From Acidobacteriota bacterium (GTDB lineage Bacteria > Acidobacteriota > Holophagae > Thermotomaculales > Thermotomaculaceae), in NCBI GenBank assembly GCA_036736005.1, contig DAINNF010000002.1, positions 193 through 64,192 on the forward strand: DNA of 64,000 nucleotides, given 5' to 3'. Position numbers and translations under genes: made by a program. The notes beneath the pieces are model-generated. The model was not told the DNA's origin. It saw nothing but the letters and a program-made list of their open reading frames with translations, and searched no databases. Positions 1,660 through 59,696 of this stretch are shown here, one piece after another (position 1 is the first letter of the stretch; each line of letters begins with the position of its first letter).

Positions 1660-2382
1660 ATGAAACGAACCATTTTGACAGCCGGTATGGTGCTGGCGTT
1701 CATGGTAAGTGGGTTTTCTTCTGACAATGGATTCAAGGGAGATGCCTCTTTCGGGTTGTCCTCAACCGGTGGGAATTCGGATACGGCTTCCGTCAGTTTC
1801 ACGTTTACAGCGGACAGACAACTTTCGGAACGATACAAGTGGCTCAACAAGGGAAGCTATCTGTGGAGTGACTCGGACGGTGAAACCACGGCGGACCGGA
1901 CATCTCTGGAAACCCGATTGGAGTGGCATCCCCGCAAGCGGTTTTTCGGTTACGTGCAGACCGGGTACCTGCGGGACCAGTTCAAGGATTTTGACTACCG
2001 TGTGACACCCGGTGTCGGGGCCGGTTGGACCGTACTTGAGCGAAACGCAAAGTCACTGGATCTGACCCTGGGCCTGACCGGTGTGTTTACCGCCTACCGG
2101 GACAGCGGCGAGACCGAGTCCTATACGGCCGTTACCCTCGGAAATACGTTCAAGTGGAAAATTACGGATACGGCAGATTTCAGCCAGTCGCTTCGATTCA
2201 GTGCGGATATTTCGGAAATGGAGCGCTACTTCGTGGAGTTTGAAATGAGCCTGGCCGTTTCGATCAACACCCGATGGGGCCTGAAGGTCTCCTTTACAGA
2301 CAATTACGAAAGCCGTCCGCCTTCACCGGATATCAAGAAGAACGATACGGCATTGATCGCCGGAATCACGTATCGGTTCTGA
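1660..2382 (+). CDS. DUF481 (YdiY-like) outer-membrane beta-barrel protein
   Basis: Signal peptide, a GNSDT repeat motif, alternating beta-strand pattern, and a C-terminal ...KKNDTALIAGITYRF ending in an aromatic residue. Confidence 0.7.
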   Translation: MKRTILTAGMVLAFMVSGFSSDNGFKGDASFGLSSTGGNSDTASVSFTFTADRQLSERYKWLNKGSYLWSDSDGETTADRTSLETRLEWHPRKRFFGYVQTGYLRDQFKDFDYRVTPGVGAGWTVLERNAKSLDLTLGLTGVFTAYRDSGETESYTAVTLGNTFKWKITDTADFSQSLRFSADISEMERYFVEFEMSLAVSINTRWGLKVSFTDNYESRPPSPDIKKNDTALIAGITYRF

Positions 2383-2384
2383 AC

Positions 2385-2424
2385 ACACAAAAACAGGACC
2401 TCGGGGAGGTCTACCGAGGTCCTG
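2385..2424 (-). terminator. Intrinsic terminator, oriented for the minus strand
   Basis: 11-bp stem CAGGACCTCGG (2394-2404) / CCGAGGTCCTG (2414-2424) with a 9-nt loop. Only on the minus strand is it followed by TTTTTGTGT (2393->2385). Confidence 0.6.
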
Positions 2425-2558
2425 GTCATTGGGTCCCGTTGGAGAGGTGACGGAGGTCTAAACGTCATTGGTCGGAACCAGGTGTCTTTCATCGGGTGTC
2501 CCCCGCCTTCCGGAACTGGGGGCCGTCCAGTGGTTCGGGGAACCCCGTTCGACACGCT
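2387..2558 (-). ncRNA. Candidate sigma-54-dependent small RNA (~170 nt), family unknown
   Basis: Bounded by a consensus sigma-54 promoter (2569-2584) and the terminator at 2385-2424. It lies in a convergent intergenic gap. No ORF closes before the terminator. Confidence 0.4.
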
Positions 2559-2568
2559 TTTTATATAA

Positions 2569-2584
2569 TGCAAACCACGTGCCA
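2569..2584 (-). promoter_or_regulatory. Sigma-54 (RpoN) -24/-12 promoter
   Basis: The minus strand reads CTGGCACGTGGTTTGCAT, which is TGGCAC-N5-TTGCA with the correct GG-N10-GC spacing. An AT-rich tract lies immediately upstream (2585-2640). Confidence 0.6.
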
Positions 2585-2688
2585 GTTTCTTGAATTATCG
2601 TAAAATAAAGATAATACATAACATGACAAAATCTGTATAGAGCAGGAGTGCCAGTTTGGCGGTACTGGACGCAGGAATGGCCCGCCTG

Positions 2689-3522
2689 TCAGGCGCGGTC
2701 AAGCCCGGCAAGGATGCGGAGGACCGCGTTGGCCTGATGACCGGCTGTAACCATGACCCGTGGGGCCATGAGTCCGTTTCCCGGGCCTGCCGCAGAGACC
2801 AGGTCGCCGCACAGGACGATGTTTCGGGAAAGCTGTCTCGTTCGAATGTCATTGGCGGGATAGATACCGGCCAGTCCGGATGCCGTGACCAGATGACACC
2901 GTTCAAAGGCGGGACTGCTGAAAGCCTGCACAATCATCTGTTTGGACGCCACCGTGTCAAATGCCTCCACGACCACGTCGCAATCTTCAAAGATGCGCGC
3001 AAGATTGTCCGGTTCCAGTCTGTCCCGGTAACACCGGATGCTCACAAACGGATTGAAGCGATGAATGTTATCTTTCAGTGCGACGACCTTGAACCGTCCG
3101 ATGTCACATCGCTCATAGTGCTGGCGGTTCAGGTTTGTGGGATCGACGCGGTCATAATCGGCCAGTACCAGCGAACCGACTCCACTTCTGGCCAGGGCCA
3201 CAGCCACATGGGAGCCGAGTCCACCGCAACCGGCCACGCCGACGGTGGCGGACTGGAACTTTTCCGGCAGTTCCGGAGAGTGCCGCGCTGTCAGCAGGTC
3301 GTAAAAGACCTCCGGGCTTTCCGGTATATCAAACCCGACTGTGGTGATGCGGTCATTGTGGGACAGAAAGGTCTCTTCTTCTTCAGGAAGGTGGACCGGA
3401 TGACCGTTTCGAATGACGATCGGCGCGCTGTCTTCGCCCTGTTGGATCAGCAGGTCAATCAACGGCATGCCTTCCGGGACCCGGTGCACGGTACCGTTCA
3501 GCCGCACGTGGATGTCTTTCAT
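2689..3522 (-). CDS. ThiF-family E1-like adenylyltransferase with an N-terminal ThiS-like (ubiquitin-fold) domain
   Basis: The first ~65 aa resemble ThiS (HVRLNGTVHRVPEG...LSHNDRITTVGF) but lack a terminal GG. The E1 nucleotide-binding motif follows (VGVAGCGGLGSHVAVALARSGVGSLVLADYDRVDPTNLNRQ). Confidence 0.75.
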   Translation of the reverse strand: MKDIHVRLNGTVHRVPEGMPLIDLLIQQGEDSAPIVIRNGHPVHLPEEEETFLSHNDRITTVGFDIPESPEVFYDLLTARHSPELPEKFQSATVGVAGCGGLGSHVAVALARSGVGSLVLADYDRVDPTNLNRQHYERCDIGRFKVVALKDNIHRFNPFVSIRCYRDRLEPDNLARIFEDCDVVVEAFDTVASKQMIVQAFSSPAFERCHLVTASGLAGIYPANDIRTRQLSRNIVLCGDLVSAAGPGNGLMAPRVMVTAGHQANAVLRILAGLDRA

Positions 3523-3755
3523 CAGCCACCTCCGACAGGGATGTACAGAAAGACGTGATCACCGTCGGTCAACTGGTGTGACAGGCGGACTTCCACCCCG
3601 TTGACCACCGGAATGACATGCTGCCGGTGTTCGGGTCGCATCCCGAGTTCCCGGAGCAGTGTCTGGATGGGGGCGGCCTGCGGTGCGGTTACCGTGTCGC
3701 CGCTGCTTATGCCGTTCAATTGGAGAAAACCCGGAAATTCAAGGGTAATCTTCAT
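3522..3755 (-). CDS. ThiS/MoaD-family ubiquitin-like sulfur-carrier protein (C-terminal GG)
   Basis: 77 aa ending in ...DGDHVFLYIPVGGG. AGGAGGA RBS 6 nt upstream. Its stop codon overlaps the downstream E1 start by 1 nt. Confidence 0.75.
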   Translation of the reverse strand: MKITLEFPGFLQLNGISSGDTVTAPQAAPIQTLLRELGMRPEHRQHVIPVVNGVEVRLSHQLTDGDHVFLYIPVGGG

Positions 3756-3809: not shown

Positions 3810-3880
3810 GTGTCAGCGGCTCAATTTGCGGGACCGTAGTCCGGACGGGTATCGAACCGAGTCCCGCAGGAAGCTGCGTC

Positions 3881-3910
3881 AAAAAGAAAGGAAGGAGCGG
3901 GGCTCCTTCC
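3881..3910 (-). terminator. Intrinsic terminator on the minus strand with no annotated gene upstream of it
   Basis: 9-bp stem GGAAGGAGC (3890-3898) / GCTCCTTCC (3902-3910), followed on the minus strand by TTTCTTTTT (3889->3881). Confidence 0.6.
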
Positions 3911-4123
3911 CGAATATGGGGTTATGGAGGTTTCGGTTCATGAAGCTTCTGGTAATGGGATGTTCAAAAGAGCGATTCGTTACAACGACGACCGGCCCGC
4001 TGGGGGGGCGGGCCGGTGTCAGCATGATGGGGTGTGAGGGTTAAGGAGGTCATGGTCCTCAGCACCAGTCTGATTCATTTCAGATCATCGAGGGGGGATG
4101 ATCGACGAATCAGCGGTTCACAT
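3881..4123 (-). ncRNA. Candidate structured small RNA (~240 nt), family unknown
   Basis: Lies between a sigma-54-like element (4134-4149) and the terminator at 3881-3910. Nested stems at 4070-4076/4107-4113 and 4083-4089/4097-4103; a 9-bp stem at 3992-4000/4008-4016. The longest ORFs are under 30 codons. Confidence 0.3.
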
Positions 4124-4133: not shown

Positions 4134-4149
4134 TGCCAGAGTCATGCCA
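4134..4149 (-). promoter_or_regulatory. Sigma-54-like -24/-12 element (imperfect)
   Basis: The minus strand reads TGGCATgactcTGGCA. GG-N10-GC spacing is kept, with one mismatch in each half relative to TGGCAC-N5-TTGCA. Confidence 0.3.
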
Positions 4150-4347
4150 GCTACGGAAGCCGGTAAAGCACCCTGATTCCGGGAATTGGTGGCCCATTCA
4201 TGCCGCTTTGGCATCCCGGTTGTGCCAGAATTGCATGGGTGCCCGGCGTGACACCCCAATTCTTGCGGGTTGTGCATAAGTGGTTTATGCTGGTTGTGAT
4301 CACATGATGATCTCACCTGCGGACACAATTGGCATGGGGAGGCATGT

Positions 4348-4908: not shown

Positions 4909-6320
4909 TCAAACCGGCTACGAAGATTGTGTGCACCATCGGTCCGGCCTGTGCTGACGCAGAGGTCATGTCCGCGATGATTGAGGCAGGGATGAGTATG
5001 GCCCGTCTCAACTGTTCCCATGGAACCCACGAGCAGATGGCGGAGTATGCGGATTTTGTCCGTGAGGCCTCCCGCCGGACAGGTGTTCCAGTGGGATTGA
5101 TGGCCGACCTGCAGGGCCCGAAGATCCGCGTGAGAGATCTGACCCGTCCCGGGATCGAGTTGACGGACGGCACCACGATCTGGATTGACCAGAACCCGGC
5201 TCCGGGAGATGAACGCAGAATTTCCGTCGACTATTCGGGTTTTGTGGGTGATGTCAAGATTGGCGACCCCGTTCTGATAGATGATGGCACCATTCGACTG
5301 GAGGTAACGGAGAAAGTATCGGATGCGGTCCGGTGTCGGGTCGTTCACGGCGGGGAACTGAAGCCCCATAAGGGCGTCAATCTGCCCGGGGTTGAATTGT
5401 CCATTCCATCTTTCACGAAAAAAGACGCAGCCGATCTGGATGCGGCGTTGCGTATCGGTGTGGACTTCGTGGCATTGTCTTTTGTTCGTCACCCGGACGA
5501 TATTCGTGAGCTTCGCCGACGAATCGGTGAATCCGATGTCCGTATTATCGCAAAGATTGAGCGACCGGAAGCATTGTCCCATATCGCGTCGATCATTCGT
5601 GAATCGGATGGCGTGATGGTGGCCCGGGGCGATCTGGGCATGGAGATTCCGTTGCAGCAGGTACCGGGCTGGCAGAAGCGGATCCTGCAACTGGCGTCGG
5701 AAGCCGGGCGATTTGCCATTACGGCCACCCAGATGCTGGATTCTATGGTAAAAGCGCCCACCCCGACGCGGGCGGAAGTTTCGGATGTGGCAAATGCGAT
5801 TCTGGATGGTACCGACGCGACCATGCTGTCCGGTGAGACGGCGGTGGGCGATTTCCCGGTGGAAACGGTAGCGACCATGGCGTCGGTGGCAAAGGAGGCT
5901 GAACAACTGGTTCGTCCGCTGGAACTGAAACACACGGAGATGCGGGACGGGGAACATGCAACCGACCGGGCGATAGCGGCGTCGGCTTCCATGATTGCCG
6001 CCATGGTCAGTGCCCGTTGCATTGCGGCGTTCACCGAATCCGGTTTTACGGCCCTGCTGATATCCAAGCAACGTCCGGGCGTCCCGATATTCGGCATTAC
6101 GCCTCATGAACGGGTCGCACGACAGTTGACCGCCTATCGGGGCGTTACGCCCATGCTGGCCGATCCGGAGGGCAGCACGGACCGGCTGTTTCAACTGGTT
6201 GCCGATAACCTTCGTTCAGAAGGACGTGTACGCAAAGGGGATCGTGTTGTGGTGACGATGGGGTTGCCGTTTGCCAGAAGAGGGACCACAAACCTGCTCC
6301 ATGTGATGGAGATCGAATGA
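4905..6320 (+). CDS. pyk: Pyruvate kinase
   Basis: TKIVCTIGPA...MARLNCSHG...KIERPEAL...VMVARGDLGMEIP...ATQMLDSM. The TTG start overlaps the upstream stop (TTGA). Confidence 0.95.
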   Translation: MIKPATKIVCTIGPACADAEVMSAMIEAGMSMARLNCSHGTHEQMAEYADFVREASRRTGVPVGLMADLQGPKIRVRDLTRPGIELTDGTTIWIDQNPAPGDERRISVDYSGFVGDVKIGDPVLIDDGTIRLEVTEKVSDAVRCRVVHGGELKPHKGVNLPGVELSIPSFTKKDAADLDAALRIGVDFVALSFVRHPDDIRELRRRIGESDVRIIAKIERPEALSHIASIIRESDGVMVARGDLGMEIPLQQVPGWQKRILQLASEAGRFAITATQMLDSMVKAPTPTRAEVSDVANAILDGTDATMLSGETAVGDFPVETVATMASVAKEAEQLVRPLELKHTEMRDGEHATDRAIAASASMIAAMVSARCIAAFTESGFTALLISKQRPGVPIFGITPHERVARQLTAYRGVTPMLADPEGSTDRLFQLVADNLRSEGRVRKGDRVVVTMGLPFARRGTTNLLHVMEIE

Positions 6321-7756
6321 TGACGTTCGTGCTGCTGGCGATTTCCGCTGTGCTGCTTGCGGCTTCGTTTGTCCCGTGGTTGTTCGGATTACCGGGTCTG
6401 CTTTTTCTGGTGCCCGCGATTGCGGCAGCCCGCCGGGAGTTGAGCTGGCAGCGACGGGTCCTGTGGGGTCTGATCTGGGGTGTCCTGATCTTCACGGCAA
6501 ACTTTTATTGGACCATTCATACCATGCACATTTATGGCCGGATGAGCATCTGGCTGTGCATACTCCTCTTCATACCGCTGGCCATTTATCAGATGGCGCC
6601 GTTCATTATCTGGTTTGTGTTCTACCGGAGCATGGAAAGTCGTCACCGGTTTCTGCCGGTCCTGGCGTTGCCGCTGCTGATCCGTCTGTTTCCCCTCGTG
6701 TTTCCGTATACCCTGGCTTCCGCCATATCGGTGAATCCCTTTCTGGTGCAGAGCGCGAGCATATGGGGCGAATGGGGACTGGATGCCATGATGGTACTGG
6801 CAGGGATATTGTTACTGGATTTCCGGCGGGAACGTTCTCGTCGGAACCTGGTCCGGATTGCTGTTCTGGCAGGTGTTTTCGTGGTCACCGGTATCGGAGG
6901 AATGGTTCAGTGGACACAGCGGAAAACAGATACCGTCAAATGCGTGGTTCTCCAACCCTGTGTACGGGACCTGGACAGCGAAGATGTCAAACGGAACCGG
7001 TTCTTCGGGACTGTCCGGGAAGCAAAAGGTCGTTGTACGGACGCTCTCGTAATTCTGCCGGAGTCGGCTGTGCCGGACTCCATTTCGGGGCGGGAGGATT
7101 TCTTTGATGTCATGTCGGAAATCCGTTCGGTACTGGACGCGCGGGCCATTCTGTTTAACGCGGTGGTATACCGGAACAACCGCTTGACCAATTCCGAATT
7201 CCTGCTCACCGAAAACGGGGGGCTGGAACAGTATGACAAACACCGGCTGATCCTGTTCGGGGAGCGCTTCCCGTTTTACAATCTCTTTCGGAAGCTGCCC
7301 ATTTACGCTGCAAATTTCGCAAATTTCTCTCCCGGACCCGGAGCCCGTTCCATGTCCACAGCGGATATGAAGCTGGGTACACCCATCTGTCTGGAAGGGA
7401 TTTATGAGGAATATGTGGCGGCATTGTCCGGCGGGAGTCACATGCTGATCAATCCGACTGATGATGAATGGTTCAACGGTCTTCATGCCACCTGGCTTCA
7501 TTTCAGCCAGGTTCGGATCAAGACGATTGCGAACCGGCGATGGCTGGTCCGGGCCGCCAATACGGGATACTCCGTGATTGTGGATGACCGGGGCCGCATT
7601 GTGGCGGACATTCCCGTTGAAACACCCGGTGTACTGGAGGCGGAGGTTCCTCAGATGGGCGGATCAACTGTTTTTCAGATCGTTGCGCCATATATGCGGT
7701 ACCTGTTCCTGGGTGGCGCGCTGCTGTTGTGGTGGCTGGGAAGACGGCGTTCATGA
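6317..7756 (+). CDS. lnt: Apolipoprotein N-acyltransferase
   Basis: Multi-TM N-terminus plus a C-N hydrolase domain (VILPESAVP...HRLILFGERFP...GTPICLEGIYEEY). ATGA overlap with pyk. Confidence 0.85.
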   Translation: MMTFVLLAISAVLLAASFVPWLFGLPGLLFLVPAIAAARRELSWQRRVLWGLIWGVLIFTANFYWTIHTMHIYGRMSIWLCILLFIPLAIYQMAPFIIWFVFYRSMESRHRFLPVLALPLLIRLFPLVFPYTLASAISVNPFLVQSASIWGEWGLDAMMVLAGILLLDFRRERSRRNLVRIAVLAGVFVVTGIGGMVQWTQRKTDTVKCVVLQPCVRDLDSEDVKRNRFFGTVREAKGRCTDALVILPESAVPDSISGREDFFDVMSEIRSVLDARAILFNAVVYRNNRLTNSEFLLTENGGLEQYDKHRLILFGERFPFYNLFRKLPIYAANFANFSPGPGARSMSTADMKLGTPICLEGIYEEYVAALSGGSHMLINPTDDEWFNGLHATWLHFSQVRIKTIANRRWLVRAANTGYSVIVDDRGRIVADIPVETPGVLEAEVPQMGGSTVFQIVAPYMRYLFLGGALLLWWLGRRRS

Positions 7757-8916: not shown

Positions 8917-9663
8917 ATGTTCAAATTGAAAGGGAAACGCGCCATTGTGACAGGCGGAACGCGCGGAATCGGACGGGAAGTCTGTCGGATTCTGCACGAG
9001 AATGGAGCCGACGTCATGGCTTCCTATGCCAGCAACAGGGAAGCGGCCGATAGACTGGAGGCGGATTTTCCCGGGATTCATACGTTCGCAGGCGATCTGG
9101 GAGATGAGCTGACGGTTGAAGAGCTGGTCGCGACTGCCTATCAGAAGATGGGCGGCGTCGATATCCTGATCAACAATGCCGGCATCTGGAATTACCTGAA
9201 AGCCGGCAGTCTTCAGGTGGAAGTCTGGGACCACATGATTCGAAACAACCTGCGCTCTGTCTATCTGTTGACTGACCATGTAATTGCACGATGGCTGAAA
9301 GACGGGACAAAGGGGCGGATTGTGCATGTGGCTTCAACCGCCGGCCAGCGGGGAGAAGCGGAGCATGCCCACTATGCCGCTACCAAGGGAGCGATCATCT
9401 CATACACCAAGTCGCTCTCGTCCGAATTGGCCCCGAAGGGAATTATCACCAACTGTGTTGCACCCGGATGGGTGGACACAGAGATGAATACCGGTGTGTT
9501 TGCAGACAACGGACGTGAAACGGTGGCTGCGGGTATCCCGCTGGGACGGATCCCCACGGCGGAGGAGATTGCGTGGCCCATCATCTTTCTGGCTTCCGAA
9601 CTGGCGGCGGCCGTTACCGGTGAGATTTTTAACGTGAACGGGGGCAATGTCTTGTGCGGTTAG
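8917..9663 (+). CDS. SDR-family oxidoreductase (FabG-like)
   Basis: TGGTRGIG cofactor motif, NNAG, and the YAATKGA catalytic Tyr/Lys. Confidence 0.85.
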   Translation: MFKLKGKRAIVTGGTRGIGREVCRILHENGADVMASYASNREAADRLEADFPGIHTFAGDLGDELTVEELVATAYQKMGGVDILINNAGIWNYLKAGSLQVEVWDHMIRNNLRSVYLLTDHVIARWLKDGTKGRIVHVASTAGQRGEAEHAHYAATKGAIISYTKSLSSELAPKGIITNCVAPGWVDTEMNTGVFADNGRETVAAGIPLGRIPTAEEIAWPIIFLASELAAAVTGEIFNVNGGNVLCG

Positions 9664-9692
9664 TCCGCCGGGAATGTGATTCGGAGGGTTTT

Positions 9693-11681
9693 GTGAACCG
9701 TTTATCCGAAAAACCGATCTCCCACCGGCTGTCCGTCATCGTTGTTGCGATCATCCTTCTGCTGGGAGTCGTGTGTGTTCAGGCAGAAACGGCCGGGCTT
9801 GGCGCAGGGGACAATCTGAAAGAAAAGAACCGGGAAGCCGTGGCTCTGCTGGACACCGACCTGGACGCAGCCAGAGAACTGGCCCTCGCCATCGTGCAGG
9901 AAGCCGCTCGACGGGGGGACGTCCGTCAGGAAACAGTGGCGTATCGAACCATCGGCGTGGCCTATGTGTATGAAAACGACTTCAGGAGAGCGGGGGACTA
10001 TTTTGAACGGGCTCACGATCTCGCGGTGCGCAACCAGCTGGACGACCTGTTTCCCTCTCTGCTCAACAACCTGGGGGTGGCATACCGCTACCAGTCTGAT
10101 TACCGGAAAGCGTTGACGTACTTTCAGCAGGCCGCCGATCTCTTTGCAAAAACGGATCGGCCGATCATCCGGGCGCAGTCATTGTTCAATGCAGGTGCCT
10201 GTTATTACTACATGGGCGATTATGAGCACGCAATGGACAAATACCTGGAAGCCAGACGGATCTGGGAGGCCCAGAAACACAAGCCCGGGATTGCGATGGC
10301 GGCCAACGCGATTGCGGTTATCCATGATGAACTGAAGGAATTCGATGCGGCCCTGGAAGGGTATCAGCAATCGTTGAAACTGTTCAAGGAGCTGGGGGAT
10401 AAACGGGGCATGAGTGACCCGCTGAACAACCTGGGAATTCTCTATTACAGCTATCTCAATGATCTCGACACTTCGCTCCAATACCACGAACAAGCGTTGG
10501 AAATCCGACGGGAAACCGGAGACCGGCTGGGTGAGGCCATTTCGTTAAACAATATCGGAAACGTATACAGCGCGAAGGGAGATCTGGACAAGGCACTGCG
10601 TTATTATGTGGACGCGCTGAATATCAAAGAACAACTGGGTGAGAAGGCGGAAATTGCGGTCTCACTCAGGGACATTGGTGATGTGTACCGGGAACAGGGT
10701 GAATATGAACGCGCCATGGGTTATGCGCAGCGTTCACTTGAAGTAGCCAGAGAAGTGGGTGCGCAGAAGGATGTTCGAAGCGTGTTGCGTGATCTGTCCG
10801 ATATTTCCAGGGAGATGGGCAATTATCGCCAGGCTTATGACTACCGCGTCCAGTACGAGGATCTGGATGAATCACTGCGTGGGGAGGAGACATCCCGCAA
10901 AGTGGCCGAGATGATTGCGCGGGAGCGGCTCCACCAGCAGAAAGAACAGATTCGGGTGCTGGAACGTGAATCGGAGAATCGGAAAAATCTCCTGATGGTC
11001 ACCATTCTGGCTGCCTTTCTTTTGCTTCTGGTTGGGTTGGGGGTCTACCTGCAAAGTCGGATGCGCATGCGGATGAATCGGCAACTCCAGCAGAAAAACC
11101 AGCAGATTTCCGCACAGAAAGAAAAGCTGGAAACGCTCAACCGGATTCTGGAAGAGAAATCACAGGAATATTACGTCAGTTCCATTACCGACCCGTTGAC
11201 CGGTATTTTCAACCGGGCTTTCATTATGGAAGTGCTGGAACGGGAGTTGAAGCGGGCACAACGACATGGCGATCCCCTTTCTGTTGTCTTTCTTGACCTG
11301 GACCACTTCAAGTCCGTCAATGACAACCACGGACATGCCGTGGGAGATCTGGTGCTGCGGACCATTTCCCAGCGGGTGCTCCAGTCACTGCGACCGGAGG
11401 ATTATTTCGGCCGGTTTGGTGGAGAGGAATTTCTTCTGGTCCTTCCGGCAACACCGCTTGAAGGGGCGGTTCTGGTTGTGAAGCGCCTTCGGGAACTGGT
11501 ATCCAGAGACCCGGTGCTGGCGGGGGGCGTAGCGCTGAACATCACCCTGAGTGCAGGCATCACCCGGCTGGCCGGAGATCAGAGTGCCACGGCAAAGGAT
11601 CTGGTATCCCGTGCGGATCGTGCATTGTACAGGGCAAAAGAAAACGGCCGGGACCGGATCGAGGTTGATTCTGAAGAATAA
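9693..11681 (+). CDS. TPR-repeat, membrane-anchored diguanylate cyclase (GGDEF) with an intact I-site
   Basis: N-terminal TM, several TPR units, a coiled coil, a second TM, then GGDEF with RPED-YFGRF-GGEEF. GTG at 9693 is preceded by GGAGGG; the track start at 9654 is also possible. Confidence 0.85.
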   Translation: MNRLSEKPISHRLSVIVVAIILLLGVVCVQAETAGLGAGDNLKEKNREAVALLDTDLDAARELALAIVQEAARRGDVRQETVAYRTIGVAYVYENDFRRAGDYFERAHDLAVRNQLDDLFPSLLNNLGVAYRYQSDYRKALTYFQQAADLFAKTDRPIIRAQSLFNAGACYYYMGDYEHAMDKYLEARRIWEAQKHKPGIAMAANAIAVIHDELKEFDAALEGYQQSLKLFKELGDKRGMSDPLNNLGILYYSYLNDLDTSLQYHEQALEIRRETGDRLGEAISLNNIGNVYSAKGDLDKALRYYVDALNIKEQLGEKAEIAVSLRDIGDVYREQGEYERAMGYAQRSLEVAREVGAQKDVRSVLRDLSDISREMGNYRQAYDYRVQYEDLDESLRGEETSRKVAEMIARERLHQQKEQIRVLERESENRKNLLMVTILAAFLLLLVGLGVYLQSRMRMRMNRQLQQKNQQISAQKEKLETLNRILEEKSQEYYVSSITDPLTGIFNRAFIMEVLERELKRAQRHGDPLSVVFLDLDHFKSVNDNHGHAVGDLVLRTISQRVLQSLRPEDYFGRFGGEEFLLVLPATPLEGAVLVVKRLRELVSRDPVLAGGVALNITLSAGITRLAGDQSATAKDLVSRADRALYRAKENGRDRIEVDSEE

Positions 11682-21500: not shown

Positions 21501-24500
21501 TCAGGTCTGACGCAGGGCATCTGCGATGGCACGGGTCAACGTTGCCGAGGTAAAGGGTTTTTCCACAAACCGTACGGAATGGTCTGCCGGTCCGCGGTTG
21601 GCCATGATTTCTTCACTGTATCCGGACATGAAAACGGCGGGCAATGCCGCTATCCGTTTCTTCAATTCCTGGTACAGGGCGGGGCCGTTCATGTCCGGCA
21701 TCACGACGTCAGTCAGCAGCAGATCAAACGGCTCCGATTCGGTTTCAACATGTTTGATGGCCTCGAGTGGATTGGCGATATCGGTGACCCGGTAGCCGAA
21801 GTCTTCCAGCAGTGAGCGGGCCAGGTTGCGTACATCGTTATTGTCTTCAACCAGCAGGATGCGCTCACCGTTTCCCGGCATCGGTTTCAGTGCGGGAAGC
21901 TCTTCATCCCGGACCGGAGTCGCAGTTGACGGAATATACGTGCGGAAAATGGCGCCCATTCCCGGTTCACTGTATACACGGATGGTTCCCTTGTGCTGTT
22001 TCACGATGCCGTACACAACCGCCAGTCCCAATCCTGTCCCCCGGCCGCGCTCTTTTGTGGTGAAAAACGGTTCGAATATTCGATTAACGGTAGCCGTTTC
22101 CATCCCTCTGCCGTTGTCCTCCACGGTCAGAACTGCGTATGTACCCGGAGCCAGCGCGGGATCCGGAACGTCTTCTTTCGAGAAGGACCGTACATCCGTG
22201 CTGATGCCGATCCGGCCGTCATTATCCAGTGCGTCCCGGGCGTTGATCACGAAATTGATGATGATCTGCTCCAGTTGTGTACGGTCGGCGTCCACCCAGA
22301 TGGGATCTTTTGCACAGGAAATATTGATGGCAATACTGGCGGGAATGGTGCGACGGATCATGGATTCCATTTCCCGGATCAATCCATTGAGATCCACCGT
22401 CTCCATCCGTAACACCTGTTTCCGGCTGTAGGCCAGCATCTGCTGGACCAGTTTTCGGGCGGAGTCGGCCGCCCGTTGAATCATATGAAGCCGTGTCTTC
22501 ATTTCATCCGGCAGATCCGGCGTATCGAGCAACAATTCCACGTAGCCCAGTACCGGTGTCAGGAGGTTGTTGAAATCATGGGCGATACCACCCGCAAGCT
22601 GACCCACCGACTCCAGACGCTGTGTCTGCACCAGTTTCTCTTCCAGCTCTTTCTGGTGGGTCATATCCTCAATGATGCCCTCATAACAGACGATGGAGCC
22701 ATTTTCATCTGTAATGGTCCGGTTATGGTTCCTGACCCAGATGCGTTTCCCGTCCAGACGAAGCAACTGAAATTCATCCAGTACACCCTCCGGATTGGCG
22801 TCCAGGAGTTTCAGATGCCGATCCCGCGCTTCTTTATCCGGATAGAAATCCAGAACCTGCCGGTGCAACAGATCATCCACGTTCTCCGCCCCGAGAATCT
22901 CCGCCAGTGTGGGGTTGGCAAAAATGAACCGGCTGTCGGGTGTTGTGCGATAGAGTCCAAGCGGCAGCTGGTCTGCCAGTTCCCGGTATCGGGATTCACT
23001 TTCCCGAAGCGCCTGTTCCGCCTTCTTTCGGGCGATCACGGCGGCGATCTGGTTGGAGGCGGTTTCCAGGAGACTCAGGTGTTCTTCCGTAAACCGGTTG
23101 GGATCGTCGTAGCTTTGAAGAAGCATCACGGCAAACGGTTTGTCATCGAAACGAAGGGGAATTGCCATGCATTGCAGGATCGGTTGGCCGATGATTCTGG
23201 CTTCCCCGTTCTTGACCATCTGCTCAAGAGCTTCCCTGCCAATCAGAACCGCTTTTCCGGTTTGTCGGACATGTTCCGTGAGGGTGCCTGCAGCGGCGTA
23301 TTGAAGATTGGTAAAATCTTCGCGGCCGGTGGCATAAACGCCGTTAAACGTCCGGGTTTCGGGGTCATATTCGTTCACATAGAACTCCGAGGCGTCCATG
23401 ACACCCTGAAGCACATCCTGAATACGCCGGTACAGGTCTGTGGTATTCGTGGCCCGGCCGGCTTCTTCGGAAATCCGGAGAATGAGGTTGCGGACCTGGT
23501 CGGCTTCTTTTCTGGCGGAGATTTCAAAAATGAACCCCTCGATCGCTTCGGCTTTGCCTTCCCGGTCATAAACAGCGACACCCTGTTCCCACACCCACCG
23601 GGCTTGCCCCTGGCGGTCTTTGATCCGATATTCCATCTGAAACGGCTTTCCGTCTGCAATCGCGGTTTGAACGGCTTCCCACACCCGCTGTCGGTCTGAT
23701 GGATGGATCAATTCTGCATACGATGCCGCCTTGTTGCCGATCAAATCCTCCGGTGCATAGCCGGTCAGGTCCCGGCATCCCGGACTCACCATCATCATGG
23801 TCCAGTCCCGGTCATTCAGGCAGCGGTAGGCAATGCCCGGCAGATTCTCCAGCAGCGTGGTCCACAGCCGCTGCTGTTCTTCAAATGCCTGCCGGGATTG
23901 GACCAGTTCATGGTGATGACGGGTGCGTTGGTGACGCCAGTACAGCAGGATCAGTGCCGCGGACAGTATCACAAGGGTTCCGGTCAGGACGGCCACATAC
24001 CAGTACCAGGACTCTACCGGGCGGACAACCTCATCCAGATCGATTTTGGTTATCAGAAACCAGGGTGTATCCGGCACCGGTGCGACGTAGGCAAGTACGT
24101 AGTGGCCGCGGTAATCGGTGCCTTCAACCGGTCCAACGGTCCCGGAGACGGCCATTACAGCAGGGAGCTGGATTCTGTTTCGGGGCACACGGAGTGTCAG
24201 GGCACTCTCCGGCTGATGACGGAGATCATTCAGGAACACGATATTGTCTCCCTCGGTCCGGACCAGCAGAGATTCTGCTGTCTCACTGGGTACCGACCAT
24301 TTGAGGAAGAGGGGAAACAGGTCCCGGCTGACATTTTCAATGGCCACCAGATACAGCGGTGTTTCCAACTGATCCTGCAAAACAGGTGCGATGATCGCGA
24401 TATGAACGCCGTATTGGTCATTTCTGTGAATGGGGCTGAACCAGGCACCTTTTTCCGGACTCAAATCGTGCAGAATCGCATCCATTTCAGTGGATTCCAG

Positions 24501-24896
24501 ATGGGTATCCTCGAACGCGCCAAAACGTATTTTCTGTTCCTGGTCCACAATGACCAGATTCCTGAAATTTTCTGTCAGGCAAATTGATTTCAGCCAGGCC
24601 CTGATGGCTTCTTCCGAACCGGTGTCTCCGGACCCGGCCTGTTTCAATTGGCTCTTCAAAAAGGGGGACATGCGCAACAGTTCCATGGTCTGGATGTGCT
24701 GTTCCCGCCACTCCCGGATCTGTCGGGTTTTCAGGCCATTCACGGCTTCCAGTTGATTGTACTGGTCCCGGATAACCGTAGCGGTCTGATGACGGTAGAT
24801 GAGAGCGGCGATGGCGGACAATCCCACGGTAACGAATACAAAAATGAGCAGCAGCACCCACGGAACCCGTACCGGATGTTCAGAACGATTTTTCAT
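21501..24896 (-). CDS. Hybrid sensor histidine kinase (double-Cache-like periplasmic domain, PAS, GAF, PAS, HisKA, HATPase, REC)
   Basis: TM, ~280-aa extracytoplasmic domain, TM. H-box [12 protein letters not shown]-boxes DNGRGM and GTGLGLAVVYG. C-terminal REC ([13 protein letters not shown]). Confidence 0.9.
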   Translation of the reverse strand: MKNRSEHPVRVPWVLLLIFVFVTVGLSAIAALIYRHQTATVIRDQYNQLEAVNGLKTRQIREWREQHIQTMELLRMSPFLKSQLKQAGSGDTGSEEAIRAWLKSICLTENFRNLVIVDQEQKIRFGAFEDTHLESTEMDAILHDLSPEKGAWFSPIHRNDQYGVHIAIIAPVLQDQLETPLYLVAIENVSRDLFPLFLKWSVPSETAESLLVRTEGDNIVFLNDLRHQPESALTLRVPRNRIQLPAVMAVSGTVGPVEGTDYRGHYVLAYVAPVPDTPWFLITKIDLDEVVRPVESWYWYVAVLTGTLVILSAALILLYWRHQRTRHHHELVQSRQAFEEQQRLWTTLLENLPGIAYRCLNDRDWTMMMVSPGCRDLTGYAPEDLIGNKAASYAELIHPSDRQRVWEAVQTAIADGKPFQMEYRIKDRQGQARWVWEQGVAVYDREGKAEAIEGFIFEISARKEADQVRNLILRISEEAGRATNTTDLYRRIQDVLQGVMDASEFYVNEYDPETRTFNGVYATGREDFTNLQYAAAGTLTEHVRQTGKAVLIGREALEQMVKNGEARIIGQPILQCMAIPLRFDDKPFAVMLLQSYDDPNRFTEEHLSLLETASNQIAAVIARKKAEQALRESESRYRELADQLPLGLYRTTPDSRFIFANPTLAEILGAENVDDLLHRQVLDFYPDKEARDRHLKLLDANPEGVLDEFQLLRLDGKRIWVRNHNRTITDENGSIVCYEGIIEDMTHQKELEEKLVQTQRLESVGQLAGGIAHDFNNLLTPVLGYVELLLDTPDLPDEMKTRLHMIQRAADSARKLVQQMLAYSRKQVLRMETVDLNGLIREMESMIRRTIPASIAINISCAKDPIWVDADRTQLEQIIINFVINARDALDNDGRIGISTDVRSFSKEDVPDPALAPGTYAVLTVEDNGRGMETATVNRIFEPFFTTKERGRGTGLGLAVVYGIVKQHKGTIRVYSEPGMGAIFRTYIPSTATPVRDEELPALKPMPGNGERILLVEDNNDVRNLARSLLEDFGYRVTDIANPLEAIKHVETESEPFDLLLTDVVMPDMNGPALYQELKKRIAALPAVFMSGYSEEIMANRGPADHSVRFVEKPFTSATLTRAIADALRQT

Positions 24897-24916
24897 GACT
24901 CCCCCGACGTGCTTCT

Positions 24917-24944
24917 ATTATACAGAAAAGGGGGTTGGCTGCAA
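24917..24944 (-). promoter_or_regulatory. Sigma-70-type promoter for the 21501-24896 kinase
   Basis: The minus strand reads TTGCAG (24944-24939), 16 nt, TATAAT (24922-24917). Confidence 0.5.
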
Positions 24945-24974
24945 ATCAGGAGGCGGATGGGTTGGTCACCCGGA

Positions 24975-27275
24975 TCAGGAATCGCCCTTTGGGGATTTCT
25001 GTTCCAGGATGTAGCGGACGGCTTTCAGTAGTTCATCCGGTCCGAACGGTTTGGGCAGCAGTGCCAGTTGGTCCTCGTTGAGAACCTCGGCCTGGAGGGA
25101 ATCGTCCGTATGACCGCTGGTGAACAGCACGCAAATGTGCGGCCAGTGAGCGCGAATTTTCCTGTACAGTTGCTGTCCGCCCATATTGGGCATGATCACA
25201 TCCAGGATGGCCAGATCGGTCTGCCGGGCTTCACGATCCAGAATGGAAAGGGCTTCTGTCCCATCGGAGGCGGAAAGGACGGTGTAACCGGCACGGCGCA
25301 GAATGGATATCCCCGTTTCCCGAACAGCGGGGTCGTCCTCCACAAGCAGAATCTGTTCGGCACCCCTGCTTTTCTGTGGGAGCGTATCGGAGGAAGGGAC
25401 CGCTTCGGTTGATGATCCGGTACCGGAGGCTGGCAGATAGACTTGAAACAGGGTTCCGGCATCCACTTCACTCTTGACGGTAATGGTTCCCCGGTGCTGC
25501 CGGATAATGCCGTACACGGTGGCAAGGCCCATTCCGGTCCCTTTCCCCGGACCCTTGGTGGTGAAGAACGGTTCAAAGATATGTTCCAGGACATCCGGAG
25601 ACATGCCGCAACCGTTGTCCCGTACCGAAAGAAGAACGTAATTACCGGGAACCAGTCCTTCCAGTTGCAGAACTTCTTTCGATGTAAGTGTCACCGGCCG
25701 GCAATCAATGGCGATTTCCCCACCCTCCGGCATGGCGTCCCGTGCGTTGATGCAGAGGTTCAACAACACCTGGTTGATTTGTCCCGGATCTGCCAGTACG
25801 GGTTGCAGGTCAGGTCGAGACGCATAGCTGACTTTGACATTTTCCGGGATGGTCCTTCGGATCATCTGCAATGTCTCCTGGATCTGTTTGTCCAGACTCA
25901 GCTCCCGACGATCCAGGTGTTGCCGCCGACCGAAAGCCAGCAGTTGTCGCGTCAACTCGGCTGACCGTTTGGCGGCATGGCGAATTTCCTGCAAGTTTGG
26001 TGTGATATCGGCGCCCCGTTTATAGTTCAGTTCGGCAAATTCGGTGCCCCCGATGATAACTGTCAGCATATTGTTGAAATCATGTGCGATACCGCCTGCA
26101 AGTTGACCGACCGCTTCCATTTTGTGCGACTGGCGGATTTCCTCTTCCATCCGGATTCGATTCGTGATGTCTTCCAGTGTCTGGATGACCTGCCGGACCT
26201 CTCCACTGGAATCCCGAATCGGGCTGGCTACGATACGGCAGGTCATTTGCCGCCCGTTTTCCAGATGGAAAATCTGGATATCTTCATGGCGTTGGCCATC
26301 CTGCGCCGCAGCGGTGACCAGACATCCGGGACAGGGAGAATCTGCTTCTTCGCGGTTGTAAATCTTCTGGCATTTGAGTGGATTCTGGGGGTCCATGTCC
26401 GGGAACCATGTCTGTGCGGTTCTGTTTGCCTCCAGGATGGTGCAATGCGTGTCCATCAGAACAACACCCACGTTCAGATTGTCGATCATGGTCTTGAACT
26501 TGGTTTCCGATTCGGCCAGCCGTTTTCGTGCCTTTTCAATTTCGGTGGTGTCCCGACACGCATAGAGATAGGATGCACCCTGAATGTTCACGCACTGGGC
26601 GTTGATCAGGAGCACTTTCTCCTGACCATGTTTGTCGTGGATGGTGCAACTGTAGTTGGAAACCGGGCTGTCTATGGTCGGTAACGGGCATTTCTCTGCC
26701 TGTTGTCCCATCAGGGCCCTCAGTGAGCCCTTTTCCATGGCTTCTTCCGCTGTCCAGCCGAATGCGTTGGAGAAGTTTTTGCATACAAAGGTGAATGTTC
26801 CGTCTCGTTTTGTCATGAACACGGCATCACTGATACTGTTCAAGGTCAGCCGATACAATTCTTCGCTTTGTTTGAGTTGATATTCATACTCGTTTCGTTG
26901 CAGGGCATATCGGATCGCACGAACCAGGGCGTCCGTGTCAAACTGTCCTTTGGCCAGGTAATCCTGGGCCCCCCGGCGCAGGAACTCCATTGCATATTCC
27001 GGATCGCCCACACCGGTCAGAACGATAATGGGGATGTCCGGGTGGGCCGCCTGGATACCGGTCAGCGAGTCCATGCCGTCCGAGTCCGGCAGATTCAGGT
27101 CCAGCAGAACGGCATCAAAGGACCCGTCATCCAGTTGTTGCACCCCCTCGGAAAGACGTTCCGCATGGACGAGTTCAAACCCGGAGATTTCGGACAGCAT
27201 TTCCCGGATCAGGCGGGCGTCCCCGGGGTTGTCTTCAATCAATAAAACCCTGGTTGATGCGGGATCGTGGTTCAT
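24975..27275 (-). CDS. Hybrid histidine kinase, REC-PAS-PAS-HisKA-HATPase-REC (cassette 2, B-type)
   Basis: N-terminal REC ([10 protein letters not shown]...[12 protein letters not shown]). H-box [12 protein letters not shown]-terminal REC ([13 protein letters not shown]). ATGA overlap with the upstream RR gene. Confidence 0.9.
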
Positions 27276-30851: not shown

Positions 30852-30927
30852 CCCATCCCTTCCTGTATGATTCAGCCGGAAAGCGGCCGATCCCTAAGTT
30901 CTCTGGCTGCTGAACGACATCTGACGC

Positions 30928-59670: not shown

Positions 59671-59696
59671 GTGACCGAGCACAAAGGAGGGTACAT

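Follow-up and report, generated by a model that had tools for sequence, protein, structure and literature searches.

Genomic context and promoter of RNA-1

The 64-kb stretch of Acidobacteriota DNA analysed here (the window) contains a gap between two convergent genes, encoding a DUF481 protein and a ThiF-like protein, for which a sequence-only reading had proposed a sigma-54-dependent small RNA. The bordering genes converge as had been described, and both are supported by Pfam matches. The features of the region, in window coordinates, are:

1660-2382, plus strand: DUF481 gene, Pfam-supported
2386-2558, minus strand: RNA-1, sRNA of ~173 nt, counted from a predicted +1 near 2558 up to the last base of the U-run, delimited by the conservation boundary and without a conserved ORF
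2386-2424, minus strand: intrinsic terminator with an 11-bp stem (2424..2414/2404..2394), loop UAGACCUCC (2413..2405) and a U-run from 2393
2432-2479, minus strand: middle domain, stem GGUUCCG/CGGGACC around a G-poor loop (RNAalifold helix 3)
2441-2448, minus strand: motif ACCUCUCC, invariant in 6/6 copies
2452-2458, minus strand: GACCUCC copy 1 in the middle-domain loop, ACCUCC being invariant in all copies
2482-2555, minus strand: 5' hairpin domain with invariant apical loop GCCCCCAG and a C-run at 2522..2518 (RNAalifold helices 1-2)
2569-2584, minus strand: P1, sigma-54-type -24/-12 promoter TGGCAC-GTGGT-TTGCA, the sole exact consensus match in the window
2585-2648, minus strand: AT-rich spacer from the upstream box to P1, GC 28-30%
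2649-2661, no strand assigned: upstream dyad box CGCCA-AAC-TGGCA, candidate enhancer-binding-protein site, kept in 6/6 loci
2689-3522, minus strand: ThiF gene, Pfam-supported

The minus strand from 2585 to 2568 reads CTGGCACGTGGTTTGCAT. Within it, P1 (TGGCACGTGGTTTGCA, 2584..2569) fully matches the consensus YTGGCACG-N4-TTGCW, with the GG at 2583-2582 and the GC at 2571-2570 separated by exactly 10 nt, as had been claimed. No other exact match to TGGCAC-N5-TTGCW occurs on either strand of the 64 kb, the number expected from base composition being ~0.06 per window. Further sigma-54-like near-matches at 40456, 42245 and 59958, and an N4-spaced one near 59850, were rejected because they lie inside or antisense to coding sequences. 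When P1 was compared among the six loci in which RNA-1 is found, the GG-N10-GC signature and TGCATT in the -12 region were invariant in all of them, while the surroundings and the 5-nt spacer diverged, the latter being altered in four of the five relatives (variants GTGGT, GGGCT, GCCGT, GCAAT, and GACTC).

The AT-rich tract described upstream of P1 is also real: GC content is 28-30% in windows covering 2575-2649, compared to 55% for the whole window. Its sequence is unconserved (38-43% identity between clades), yet it is AT-rich in all homologues. No IHF consensus was seen in it by eye. Immediately upstream, at about -91 to -103 from the predicted start site, lies a box that matches TGCCA-N3-TGGCA with one mismatch and retains 77-100% identity in 6/6 loci, compared to ~40% in its flanks. 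It is separated from the -24 element by 76-77 nt in one clade and by 67-69 nt in the other, a difference of approximately one helical turn. At two mismatches, the dyad is not rare in itself (45 occurrences found, 34 expected); given its position and conservation, the box is a candidate activator site with a putative function. From the promoter sequence and its conservation, we consider it likely that RNA-1 is sigma-54-dependent. Neither rpoN nor a gene for an enhancer-binding protein was found within the 64-kb window, which likewise contained no GAFTGA, RpoN-box, or Walker motifs; an NCBIfam search of 20 large ORFs revealed histidine kinases and no AAA+ activator.

Conservation, boundaries, and non-coding status of RNA-1

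The arrangement of thiS-thiF followed by the RNA element was found at the same place in five related contigs, whose ThiF proteins are from 82% down to ~50% identical to that of the window. RNA-1 lies on the thiF strand, 3' of thiF, in 6/6 loci. In four of the five loci with full-length RNA-1, the terminator is followed by an opposite-strand DUF481 gene; in L010, a co-oriented mscS gene lies 130 nt past RNA-1. The resulting set comprises five full and one partial sequences that fall into two clades. RNA-1 is known from these six contigs only, and we know of no cultured host. Its conservation in five independent contigs puts the feature, judged from sequence, far beyond chance. The RNA gene is absent where ThiF relatives directly precede an aldo-keto reductase gene ("Acidobacteria bacterium" MAGs; L009, L011-13, L017-24), and a synteny check showed that it is also absent from the loci of DUF481 relatives (L005, L006). 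A search with nhmmer, using the RNA-1 alignment, of the window and all 25 loci retrieved no paralogue.

Conservation delimits the element sharply. RNA-1 is 98% identical within the clade (to L003) and 66-70% identical to the distant clade, whereas between-clade identity is 31-46% in the stretch separating the -12 element from the RNA, and the spacer DNA is scrambled (36-43%). The onset of conservation lies only a few bases from the predicted start site, and the first conserved stem begins 13-16 nt past the C of the -12 element, which fits the expected start site 12 nt downstream. The start site (~2558) and the 3' end are nevertheless predictions. The 11-bp hairpin of the sequence-only reading was confirmed 134 nt downstream of P1, with arms at 2394-2404 and 2414-2424 that are 100% complementary and enclose a 9-nt loop. 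The U-run TTTTTGTGTGTT follows the hairpin on the minus strand only, as had been stated, and in all RNA-1 loci a U-run is present on the RNA strand only. Among homologues, the terminator stem carries two compensatory pairs (G-C to A-U and U-A to C-G) and one G-U intermediate.

As had been noted, the frame that begins with the ATG at 2492 (RNA nt 67) stays open up to the terminator. Both L002 and L003, however, have ATT in place of this ATG, the frame is shifted among homologues by indels of 1 nt and 2 nt, and the two clades would encode unrelated peptides. The homologues share no start, stop, or frame. Thus, the indels and the loss of the ATG exclude a conserved coding frame, and a small-protein reading of RNA-1 was rejected on these grounds. 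The proposal of a stand-alone sRNA of ~170 nt is therefore supported by an intergenic unit of ~173 nt with its own predicted promoter, a terminator on the same strand, and no conserved frame, and we regard it as very likely that RNA-1 is a real stand-alone sRNA gene.

Predicted fold and loop motifs

The minimum free energy of RNA-1 was -70.4 kcal/mol (z = -2.2), and homologues had z values of -3.4 and -4.4. In the consensus structure, 96.5% of cells were paired, and six pairs (eight cells) had changed on both sides. The covariation score was 0.185, compared to 0.112 for shuffled alignments, and was reached by one of 500 shuffles; when the 3' partners were slid by 1-3 columns, pairing fell to 33-56%. 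These figures come from five sequences in two clades and, since the sequences are so few, the covariation is suggestive rather than statistically decisive; to this extent the hairpins of RNA-1 are kept with compensatory changes. The 5' domain is identical between clades at 41 of ~45 core positions, and being mostly invariant, neither supports nor contradicts the fold. In the middle domain, the pair at columns 83:126 covaries, and the loop contains 2-4 G per 31-33 nt in all homologues.

The loops carry C/U-rich motifs that are predicted to be mostly unpaired. Predicted unpaired probabilities were 0.67-0.98 for GACCUCC copy 1, 0.39-0.97 for ACCUCUCC, and 0.96-0.98 for the invariant GACCUCC of the terminator loop, the mean for the molecule being 0.36-0.44. 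Each RNA-1 molecule is thus predicted to expose three to four similar motifs.

A sibling RNA upstream of thiS

P1 had been described as an orphan promoter. This description is not strictly true, given the conserved upstream box and, 1.6 kb off beyond thiSF, a sibling promoter with its own RNA. The features of the second locus are:

3880-3983, minus strand: third module, interpretable as a separate RNA-3 or as the long form of RNA-2, with AACCUCC and an intrinsic terminator
3984-4123, minus strand: RNA-2, sibling sRNA of ~140 nt, conserved in four loci
4134-4149, minus strand: P2, second sigma-54-type promoter TGGCAT-GACTC-TGGCA, identified by pattern match and conservation
4201-4235, no strand assigned: two dyad boxes upstream of P2, at 4201-4213 (TGCCGCTTTGGCA) and 4223-4235 (TGCCAGAATTGCA), in plus-strand letters

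P2 (TGGCATGACTCTGGCA, 4149..4134) differs from the consensus by one mismatch, in the -12 box, and is located upstream of RNA-2, which itself lies upstream of thiS. The relaxed pattern TGGCAY-N5-TKGCA has two exact matches in the window, P1 and P2, compared to 0.18 expected. The architecture of P2 is kept in L004, L025, and L010, and GG-N10-GC is present in 4/4 RNA-2 loci, among which there is no consistent -10 box. Both dyad boxes are conserved in four loci and each has one mismatch to TGCCA-N3-TGGCA, the same motif as that of the P1 box. Their centres are 22 bp apart in the window (20-22 bp across loci), and they lie at about -83 and -105, the RNA-1 box being at about -95.

RNA-2 carries CAUGACCUCCU in a hairpin loop, with GACCUCC at 4051..4045 (predicted unpaired probability 0.73-0.83), and ends in a hairpin, CCGGCCCGC/GCGGGCCGG, at 4016..3992. 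The other clade has UUUUGU after this hairpin, whereas the window has a U-poor tail (UCGUCGUUGU), and readthrough may therefore occur there. The third module contains ACCUCC at 3931..3926 and a terminator stem at 3911..3889 followed by a U-run; the terminator loop in the other clade is (U/C)ACCUCUC. Between-clade alignment of the third module is poor, and a promoter for it was not established.

GACCUCC is the sole 7-mer common to all copies of RNA-1 and RNA-2. Three of the ten occurrences of GACCTCC in 128 kb of strand lie within the 313 nt of these two RNAs. Since the RNAs have the same promoter type, upstream boxes, and GACCUCC loop, they probably belong to one regulon. Neighbouring genes have GGAG/GGAGG Shine-Dalgarno (SD) sequences. 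Searches of the window for GGAGGTC/GGAGAGGT revealed no motif at any start codon, and RNAduplex runs on 45 crude gene starts in the window named no target, the energies being dominated by long loop-rich artefacts.

Searches for known families and further members

A search of the region 2300-2750 against Rfam 15 returned no match at the gathering threshold, and relaxing the cut-off to E<=10 brought up nothing meaningful. In particular, the Qrr, GlmY/GlmZ, and Pxr models gave no match at E<=10 in this region or at E<=5 in four homologous loci. The sole Rfam model with even weak matches was ar14 (RF02344), which scored 13.6 bits on the RNA strand of RNA-1 and 25.4 bits in the RNA-3 region of L010, both far below its gathering score of 58.8. 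The view that the RNA resembles no known family stands as far as Rfam matches are concerned, but has to be amended in one respect: the repeated unpaired GACCUCC/ACCUCUCC motifs constitute a recognisable, anti-SD-like signature.

Pattern scans of sequence collections added no further family members. A genome-contig scan with GTTCCCCGAACC-N8-12-CCCCAGTTCC gave two matches (Thermoclostridium and a Gemmatimonadota MAG), which were rejected because they lie inside coding DNA and have the look of a conserved protein motif; this pattern was too strict, since L010 has GTTTCCCGAACC. A metagenome-contig scan with CGAACC-N3-GGAC-N-GCCCCCAGTT, a pattern to which every one of the six known copies conforms, yielded three matches that were rejected as chance occurrences in coding DNA. 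The latter scan missed even the JGI contig of L004, and the absence of matches therefore says little about the rarity of the family. Scans of viral contigs gave no matches. The negative outcome thus applies to strict patterns and to genome and metagenome collections that evidently do not hold the known contigs.

Alternative explanations

That a genuine RNA is made here, but from a sigma-70-type promoter overlapping the apparent sigma-54 elements, with (C/T)TGGCA as the -35 element and the AT-rich stretch past TTGCA as the -10 element, is suggested by L025, where the near-consensus TTGGCA-16 nt-TATAAT predicts the same start site, and by the A/T-rich segment (TATATA, TATAAT, TAAGAT, or similar) found just past the -12 element in 6/6 loci. 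The -10-like hexamers, however, stand at variable distances of 12-16 nt from the -35-like box, mostly too short, and several have no final T. TGCATT would be mere spacer in such a promoter, yet it is as invariant as GG-N10-GC is exact, and P2 shares the latter signature without a consistent -10 box. A conserved dyad ~70 bp upstream and an AT-rich spacer are, moreover, the layout of an enhancer-dependent promoter, and we find sigma-70 control very improbable. RNA-1 might instead be mainly a 3'-UTR product of thiS-thiF, generated by readthrough to the terminator at 2424..2386 and processing, the sigma-54 match being secondary. The position of RNA-1 on the thiF strand and the lack of an intrinsic terminator between the thiF stop (2689) and RNA-1 are consistent with this route. 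A processed 3' UTR, however, needs neither a promoter nor an upstream box, and these are what is conserved in an otherwise unconserved thiF-RNA spacer, while such an RNA is missing beside the ThiF relatives that directly precede an aldo-keto reductase gene. We judge a mainly 3'-UTR origin improbable; since many 3'-UTR sRNAs have internal promoters, both routes can also coexist.

Other alternatives concern what the transcript does. RNA-1 could be a protein sponge whose C/U-rich loops and 5' hairpin titrate an RNA-binding protein, in the manner of CsrB/RsmZ (CsrA) or CrcZ (Hfq/Crc), the last of which is likewise sigma-54-dependent. The several similar motifs per molecule, their presence in sibling RNAs, and a conservation of the 5'-domain sequence beyond the needs of the helix alone are compatible with such a role. 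No candidate binding protein is encoded beside the RNAs in any locus, however, and the motif is the anti-SD core, for which the established precedent is direct pairing with mRNA (PMC4615179, PMC10746234); a sponge appears unlikely. A small protein, read from the ATG at 2492 or a GTG at 2555, or a cis-acting leader or attenuator for mscS, is scarcely credible. The frame of the window is open from nt 4 as well as from nt 67, but it is disrupted in the relatives as described above; the co-oriented mscS gene of L010 would suit a leader, but past the strong terminator the opposite-strand DUF481 gene comes next in most loci.

Proposed mechanism and implications

The best explanation of the locus, in our view, is that RNA-1 is an independently transcribed regulatory RNA of an uncultured Acidobacteriota lineage. 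The account as a whole, in which a regulatory sRNA with a sigma-54-type promoter and a sibling acts through anti-SD pairing, seems to us probable. According to this model, an enhancer-binding protein would bind the TGCCA-N3-TGGCA-like dyad at about -95, DNA looping would be permitted by the AT-rich spacer, and the activator would remodel sigma-54 RNA polymerase on TGGCAC-N5-TTGCA. Transcription would start near 2558 and stop at the 11-bp hairpin and U-run (2424..2386). The transcript would fold into the strongly conserved 5' hairpin, whose apical loop is a C5 run, a middle stem around the G-poor loop with ACCUCC and ACCUCUCC, and the GACCUCC-loop terminator. Its unpaired C/U-rich motifs would mimic the anti-SD core of 16S rRNA and pair with ribosome-binding sites of the GGAGG(UC) type, blocking translation of target mRNAs upon the signal that activates the enhancer-binding protein. 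The ribosome-like GACCUCC in loops of both RNAs suggests that they probably silence mRNAs at ribosome-binding sites. Taken by itself, action of RNA-1 through anti-SD base-pairing has, we estimate, about an even chance of being correct. An anti-SD seed is unspecific by nature, and the very high sequence conservation of the 5' hairpin is unaccounted for by a pure seed-pairing model.

A more far-reaching and speculative version is that the two to three RNAs flanking thiSF are sigma-54/enhancer-controlled mimics of the 16S rRNA 3' tail that put a broad brake on SD-led translation, the 5' hairpin docking a protein. Here, unpaired anti-SD copies would flood the cell rather than regulate a few targets. 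We regard this version as a long shot; if true, it would represent a mode of global translational control undescribed for sigma-54 regulons or Acidobacteriota.

Under the preferred reading, that of sibling sRNAs controlled from sigma-54-type promoters, the locus is a compact, computationally recognisable module, with a common candidate activator site and a common anti-SD seed, from which a covariance model can be built and a regulon search launched in Acidobacteriota MAGs. Acidobacteriota are a large, mostly uncultured phylum of soils and sediments, and to our knowledge their post-transcriptional regulation is essentially unstudied; no description of a sigma-54-dependent sRNA from Acidobacteria turned up in full-text literature searches.

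Comparison with known small RNAs

The characterised sigma-54-dependent sRNAs known to us are a handful (Qrr, GlmY, Pxr, CrcZ, NrsZ, and NfiS), all from Proteobacteria or Myxococcota. Among them, Pxr (Myxococcus), CrcZ (activated by CbrB), and NrsZ and NfiS (activated by NtrC) are enhancer-dependent. GlmY (with GlrR) is described as sigma-54-dependent in PMC7073468 and PMC3844500. RNA-1 resembles these five RNAs in being non-coding, in its intrinsic terminator, and, presumably, in its enhancer-dependent sigma-54 transcription. However, it matches none of them in Rfam, none of them has GACCUCC loops, and GlmY and CrcZ are protein decoys with different motifs.

In Gram-positive bacteria, RsaE/RoxS and 6C RNA carry several unpaired C-rich motifs that pair, where studied, with G-rich ribosome-binding sites. 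RNA-1 has C-rich loops as well, including the invariant C5 apical loop, but the Gram-positive RNAs are unrelated to it in sequence, have sigma-70-type promoters, belong to other phyla, and give no Rfam match.

With respect to loop motifs, a close parallel is found in the alphaproteobacterial cuckoo-type sRNAs (cuckoo, ar14, NfeR1, and CcsR), of which CcsR is RpoHI/HII-dependent. These RNAs have two to four hairpins, each with a C/U-rich anti-SD-like motif in its loop, occur in multiple, often neighbouring copies in which the stems vary and the loop motif is fixed, and are proposed to act by occluding ribosome-binding sites (PMC4615179, PMC10746234). RNA-1 and RNA-2 share with them the anti-SD-like motif in hairpin loops, the multiple copies, and the fixed loop motif. 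The motif itself differs, since the loops of cuckoo/ar14 are CCUCCUCCC, which is absent here, and those of RNA-1 are GACCUCC, ACCUCUCC, and GACCUCCCC. RNA-1 is further distinguished by its large extra 5' domain and its Acidobacteriota host. The promoters also differ, being of the sigma-54 type at RNA-1 and RNA-2, whereas that of NfeR1 is without a sigma-54 signature (PMC10746234).

In its regulatory layout, the locus is reminiscent of Qrr1-5 of Vibrio, which are controlled by LuxO and sigma-54. Both sets consist of stand-alone sRNAs with a sigma-54-type promoter, an upstream site, and an intrinsic terminator, and in both, several sibling genes carry one conserved seed under what would be the same regulator. 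The LuxO site, TTGCA-N3-TGCAA, and the TGCCA-N3-TGGCA candidate described here are both dyads of 5-N3-5 layout. Otherwise the two differ: there is no similarity in sequence or structure and no match to the Rfam Qrr model, Qrr RNAs are ~100 nt long compared to 173 nt for RNA-1 and 140 nt for RNA-2, and the seed and the phylum are different. The Qrr-like layout of several siblings, one sigma-54 activator, and one seed appears to have arisen independently, and RNA-1 and RNA-2 are best read as a new family of a known kind of sRNA.

Results

RNA-1 and its promoter

All features described in the sequence-only reading of this locus are present at its coordinates. As claimed, the minus strand at 2585..2568, CTGGCACGTGGTTTGCAT, carries a sigma-54 consensus (core TGGCAC-GTGGT-TTGCA at 2584..2569; promoter P1), and P1 lies between convergent genes coding for DUF481 (1660-2382, plus strand) and ThiF (2689-3522, minus strand). 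The reported AT-rich tract has 28-30% GC at 2575-2649, compared with 55% overall. The hairpin was confirmed as a perfect 11-bp inverted repeat (arms 2394-2404 and 2414-2424, 9-nt loop), followed by a T-run on the minus strand only. The distance from the predicted start of RNA-1, the predicted sRNA, near 2558, to this downstream repeat is 134 nt. P1 is the sole exact TGGCAC-N5-TTGCW match on both strands of the 64-kb window, where ~0.06 are expected from base composition. No rpoN or enhancer-binding protein genes were found within the 64-kb window. Two sigma-54-like near-matches, TGGCAGCGGTCTTGCT and, with N4 spacing, TGGCACGTGTTGCA, fall within 59845-59973 (minus strand), antisense in a small multihaem cytochrome c gene (59643-60050, plus strand), and are probably by-products of CxxCH-rich coding sequence.

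A scan of the whole window with Rfam 15 at the gathering threshold yielded one tRNA elsewhere and no other match. The assignment of RNA-1 to no known family held up in a permissive scan of 2300-2750, which gave no meaningful match; the best weak match on the RNA-1 strand was ar14, at 13.6 bits (gathering score 58.8).

Conservation of the RNA-1 locus

Window proteins were matched in one NCBI contig only, plus short Logan contigs. The closest relatives of the window DNA polymerase I show 66-71% identity to it; two of them are from 'Acidobacteria bacterium' MAGs (67%), and identity to Thermotomaculum hydrothermale is 57%. DNA polymerase I thus places the organism among uncultured Acidobacteriota. 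By looking up contigs encoding ThiF and DUF481 homologues, we collected five loci that match the window in gene order.

Related RNA-1 loci (source; protein identity to the window)
L002: Logan; ThiF 82%; contig ends within RNA-1
L003: Logan; DUF481 85%
L004: JGI; ThiF 50%, DUF481 56%
L025: Logan; ThiF 52%
L010: ENA; ThiF 54%; without DUF481, co-oriented mscS after RNA-1

L010 (region 5962-7086) lacks the DUF481 gene, and a co-oriented mscS follows RNA-1 at a distance of 130 nt. In the window, L004 and L025, DUF481 lies on the opposite strand between RNA-1 and mscS; the order AMMECR1-PK / thiSF / RNA / (DUF481) / mscS is otherwise kept. The element is absent where similarly distant ThiF relatives directly precede an aldo-keto reductase gene. 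Pattern scans of large genome and metagenome contig collections returned only chance matches in coding DNA, so that the family comprises six contigs at present. Since a metagenome scan with a pattern fitting L004 (JGI 3300010350) exactly did not return the L004 contig, the searchable JGI collection is incomplete, and the negative metagenome scans are weak evidence. The 5'-domain pattern was matched by GTTCCCCGAACC...CCCCAGTTCC inside coding regions of L007 (3142-3175) and L008 (362-395), a Thermoclostridium genome and a Gemmatimonadota MAG; the same short stretch occurs in both, and looks like a conserved protein motif mimicking the RNA-1 pattern by chance.

The six RNA-1 loci form two clades, window/L002/L003 and L004/L025/L010. 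In their alignment, TGGCA(C/T) and (T/A/C)TGCATT are kept at P1, and the -24/-12 element proved to be conserved with exact GG-N10-GC geometry in six of six loci, its 5-base spacer varying (GTGGT, GGGCT, GCCGT, GCAAT, GACTC).

Between-clade identity (window to members of the other clade, per segment)
thiF stop to upstream box: 36-41%
13-nt upstream box: 77-85%
Box to -24: 38-43%
-12 to RNA-1: 31-46%
Inside RNA-1: 66-70%

The steps in conservation thus fall at the predicted promoter, start site and terminator, and of all the evidence this agreement speaks most strongly for the promoter serving RNA-1. The first conserved stem (GUCGA...) starts 13-16 nt past the -12 C in the six-locus alignment, which fits the 5' end expected if sigma-54 transcription began 12 nt downstream. 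Between the window and L003, RNA-1 is 98% identical, and the DUF481 proteins only 85%.

Structure and non-coding status of RNA-1

A consensus fold was computed with RNAalifold from the five full-length RNA-1 sequences.

Domains of RNA-1
Long 5' hairpin: 8-nt apical loop, the invariant (G/A)GCCCCCA
Middle stem GGU.CCG/CGG.ACC: encloses a G-poor loop of about 35 nt
Terminator: third domain

The middle-domain loop has only 2-4 G in 31-33 nt. The hairpins are kept in the relatives: 96.5% of cells are paired, and six pairs differ on both sides. Two of these belong to the terminator (G-C to A-U and U-A to C-G, L003 having a G-U intermediate). The covariation score was 0.185 (shuffles 0.112; 1 of 500 reached 0.185). 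When the 3' partners were shifted by 1-3 columns, pairing fell to 33-56%. Single-sequence folds were more stable than shuffled ones (z = -2.2, -3.4 and -4.4). The covariation, drawn from five sequences in two clades, is supportive of the fold but not decisive. The primary sequence of the 5' domain is conserved at 41 of about 45 core positions; much of this domain is invariant and hence uninformative on pairing.

The ATG of the frame at 2492 reads ATT in L002 and L003. RNA-1 contains a 1-nt insertion in L002 and 2-nt and other indels in the other clade, and the open frames that are left differ between clades and encode unrelated peptides. A small protein or an mscS leader is excluded by the indels and by opposite-strand DUF481 in four of the five full loci. 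RNA-1 is very probably a real sRNA gene.

We consider RNA-1 likely to be sigma-54-dependent. A sigma-70 promoter overlapping the sigma-54 elements could be drawn in L025, where TTGGCA-16 nt-TATAAT runs across them, but in the other loci -10-like boxes are weak and 12-16 nt away, the TGCATT block, a mere spacer under the sigma-70 reading, is invariant, and the second promoter described below has no consistent -10 box; transcription from such a promoter is very improbable. Readthrough from thiF may add to the RNA-1 pool, as a terminator is absent between the two, but it leaves the conserved promoter and upstream box unexplained.

A predicted sibling RNA upstream of thiS

In a permissive Rfam scan of homologous loci, ar14 and Hrs13 scored below threshold in the AMMECR1-thiS gap. 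This gap was read and aligned across four loci (window, L004, L025 and L010).

Features of the gap and thiS
4223-4235 and 4201-4213: P2 upstream boxes, each with one mismatch to the dyad TGCCA-N3-TGGCA
4149..4134, minus strand: P2, sigma-54-type promoter TGGCATGACTCTGGCA, GG-N10-GC in four of four loci
4123..3984, minus strand: RNA-2, predicted sRNA of ~140 nt, conserved in the window, L004, L025 and L010
4016..3992, minus strand: RNA-2 end hairpin CCGGCCCGC/GCGGGCCGG
3983..3880, minus strand: third module, with an ACCUCC motif, between RNA-2 and thiS (L010 4583-4705; L025 882-1000)
3911..3889, minus strand: third-module intrinsic terminator, plus U-run
3809-3804 and 3786-3781, minus strand: thiS sigma-70-like promoter, TTGCAC, 17 nt, GATAAT
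3522-3755, minus strand: ThiS, preceding ThiF

P1 and P2 are the only exact TGGCAY-N5-TKGCA matches in the window (two, against 0.18 expected). The RNA-2 end hairpin is followed by UUUUGU in the other clade and by a U-poor tail in the window. The third module may be an RNA of its own or belong to a readthrough form of RNA-2; within it, TTGTAAC...GCATC, an invariant pair separated by 17 nt, may act as a weak sigma-70 promoter. Its terminator loop in the other clade is (U/C)ACCUCUC, and in L010 the module matches ar14 at 25.4 bits, short of the gathering score. The thiS promoter reads TTGACG-17-CATAAT in L025 and L010. Rfam detected no TPP riboswitch anywhere in the window, so the thiS-thiF pair may lie outside classical thiamine control.

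A box at 2649-2661, upstream of P1, has the same motif as the P2 boxes. The centres of the latter are 22 bp apart in the window and 20 bp in the other clade; the P1 box is 76-77 nt from the -24 element in one clade versus 67-69 nt in the other, a difference of about one helical turn. At two mismatches, TGCCA-N3-TGGCA is common in the window (45 found, 34 expected), so the case rests on conservation and recurrence at both promoters, not on statistics. A dyad box, an AT-rich spacer and GG-N10-GC follow one another at two promoters, a layout conserved across deep divergence and described as enhancer-dependent sigma-54 architecture (Bush and Dixon 2012, as cited in PMC10746234).

At 21501-39684, six genes in a row code for large PAS/hybrid histidine kinases (766-1131 aa), with CckA/VirA-like matches all below curated cut-offs; no partner enhancer-binding response regulator was found in the window. 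A TPR-GGDEF protein is encoded at 9654-11681.

A shared loop motif

GACCUCC is the only 7-mer that all copies of RNA-1 and RNA-2 share; apart from it, the two sequences show no relationship. Every third-module copy has ACCUCC too, and this hexamer forms the core of the anti-Shine-Dalgarno tail of 16S rRNA. GACCTCC occurs 10 times in 128 kb of strand, three of them within the 313 nt of RNA-1 and RNA-2. In RNA-1, the middle loop carries ACCUCC (GACCUCC in the window), with the invariant ACCUCUCC nearby, and the terminator loop carries GACCUCC; in RNA-2, CAUGACCUCCU is located in an 18-nt hairpin loop. The predicted unpaired probability of the motifs is 0.39-0.98, mostly >0.7, with molecule-wide means of 0.36-0.44. 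Neighbouring genes in the RNA-bearing genomes use GGAG/GGAGG Shine-Dalgarno sequences. A search for mRNA targets within the 64-kb window identified none.

Discussion

The earlier interpretation, a stand-alone sigma-54-driven sRNA, is supported and can be extended to a small regulon of sibling sRNAs, which would have in common a candidate activator site and an anti-SD-like seed. The sigma-54 layout, the anti-SD-like loops and the precedent of the cuckoo/ar14 sRNAs together lead to the proposal that an activator would switch on RNA-1 and RNA-2 via sigma-54, and that the C/U-rich loops of both RNAs would then pair with ribosome-binding sites of target mRNAs. We give anti-SD pairing an even chance of being the mode of action; the main alternative, that the RNAs act as a protein sponge, appears unlikely.

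No report of a sigma-54-dependent sRNA from Acidobacteria turned up in full-text literature searches. The RNAs are a clean, testable find in an unstudied phylum, though a cultured host is not known. The closest functional precedent is the cuckoo/ar14/NfeR1/CcsR sRNAs, likewise anti-SD loop sRNAs, which have two to four hairpins, each showing CCUCCUCCC, and for which occlusion of ribosome-binding sites has been proposed or demonstrated (PMC4615179, PMC10746234). With Qrr, RNA-1 and RNA-2 share the arrangement of sigma-54-driven sibling sRNAs. By membership tests, however, they belong to neither Qrr nor cuckoo/ar14, and they constitute a new RNA family of a kind already known rather than a conceptually new one.
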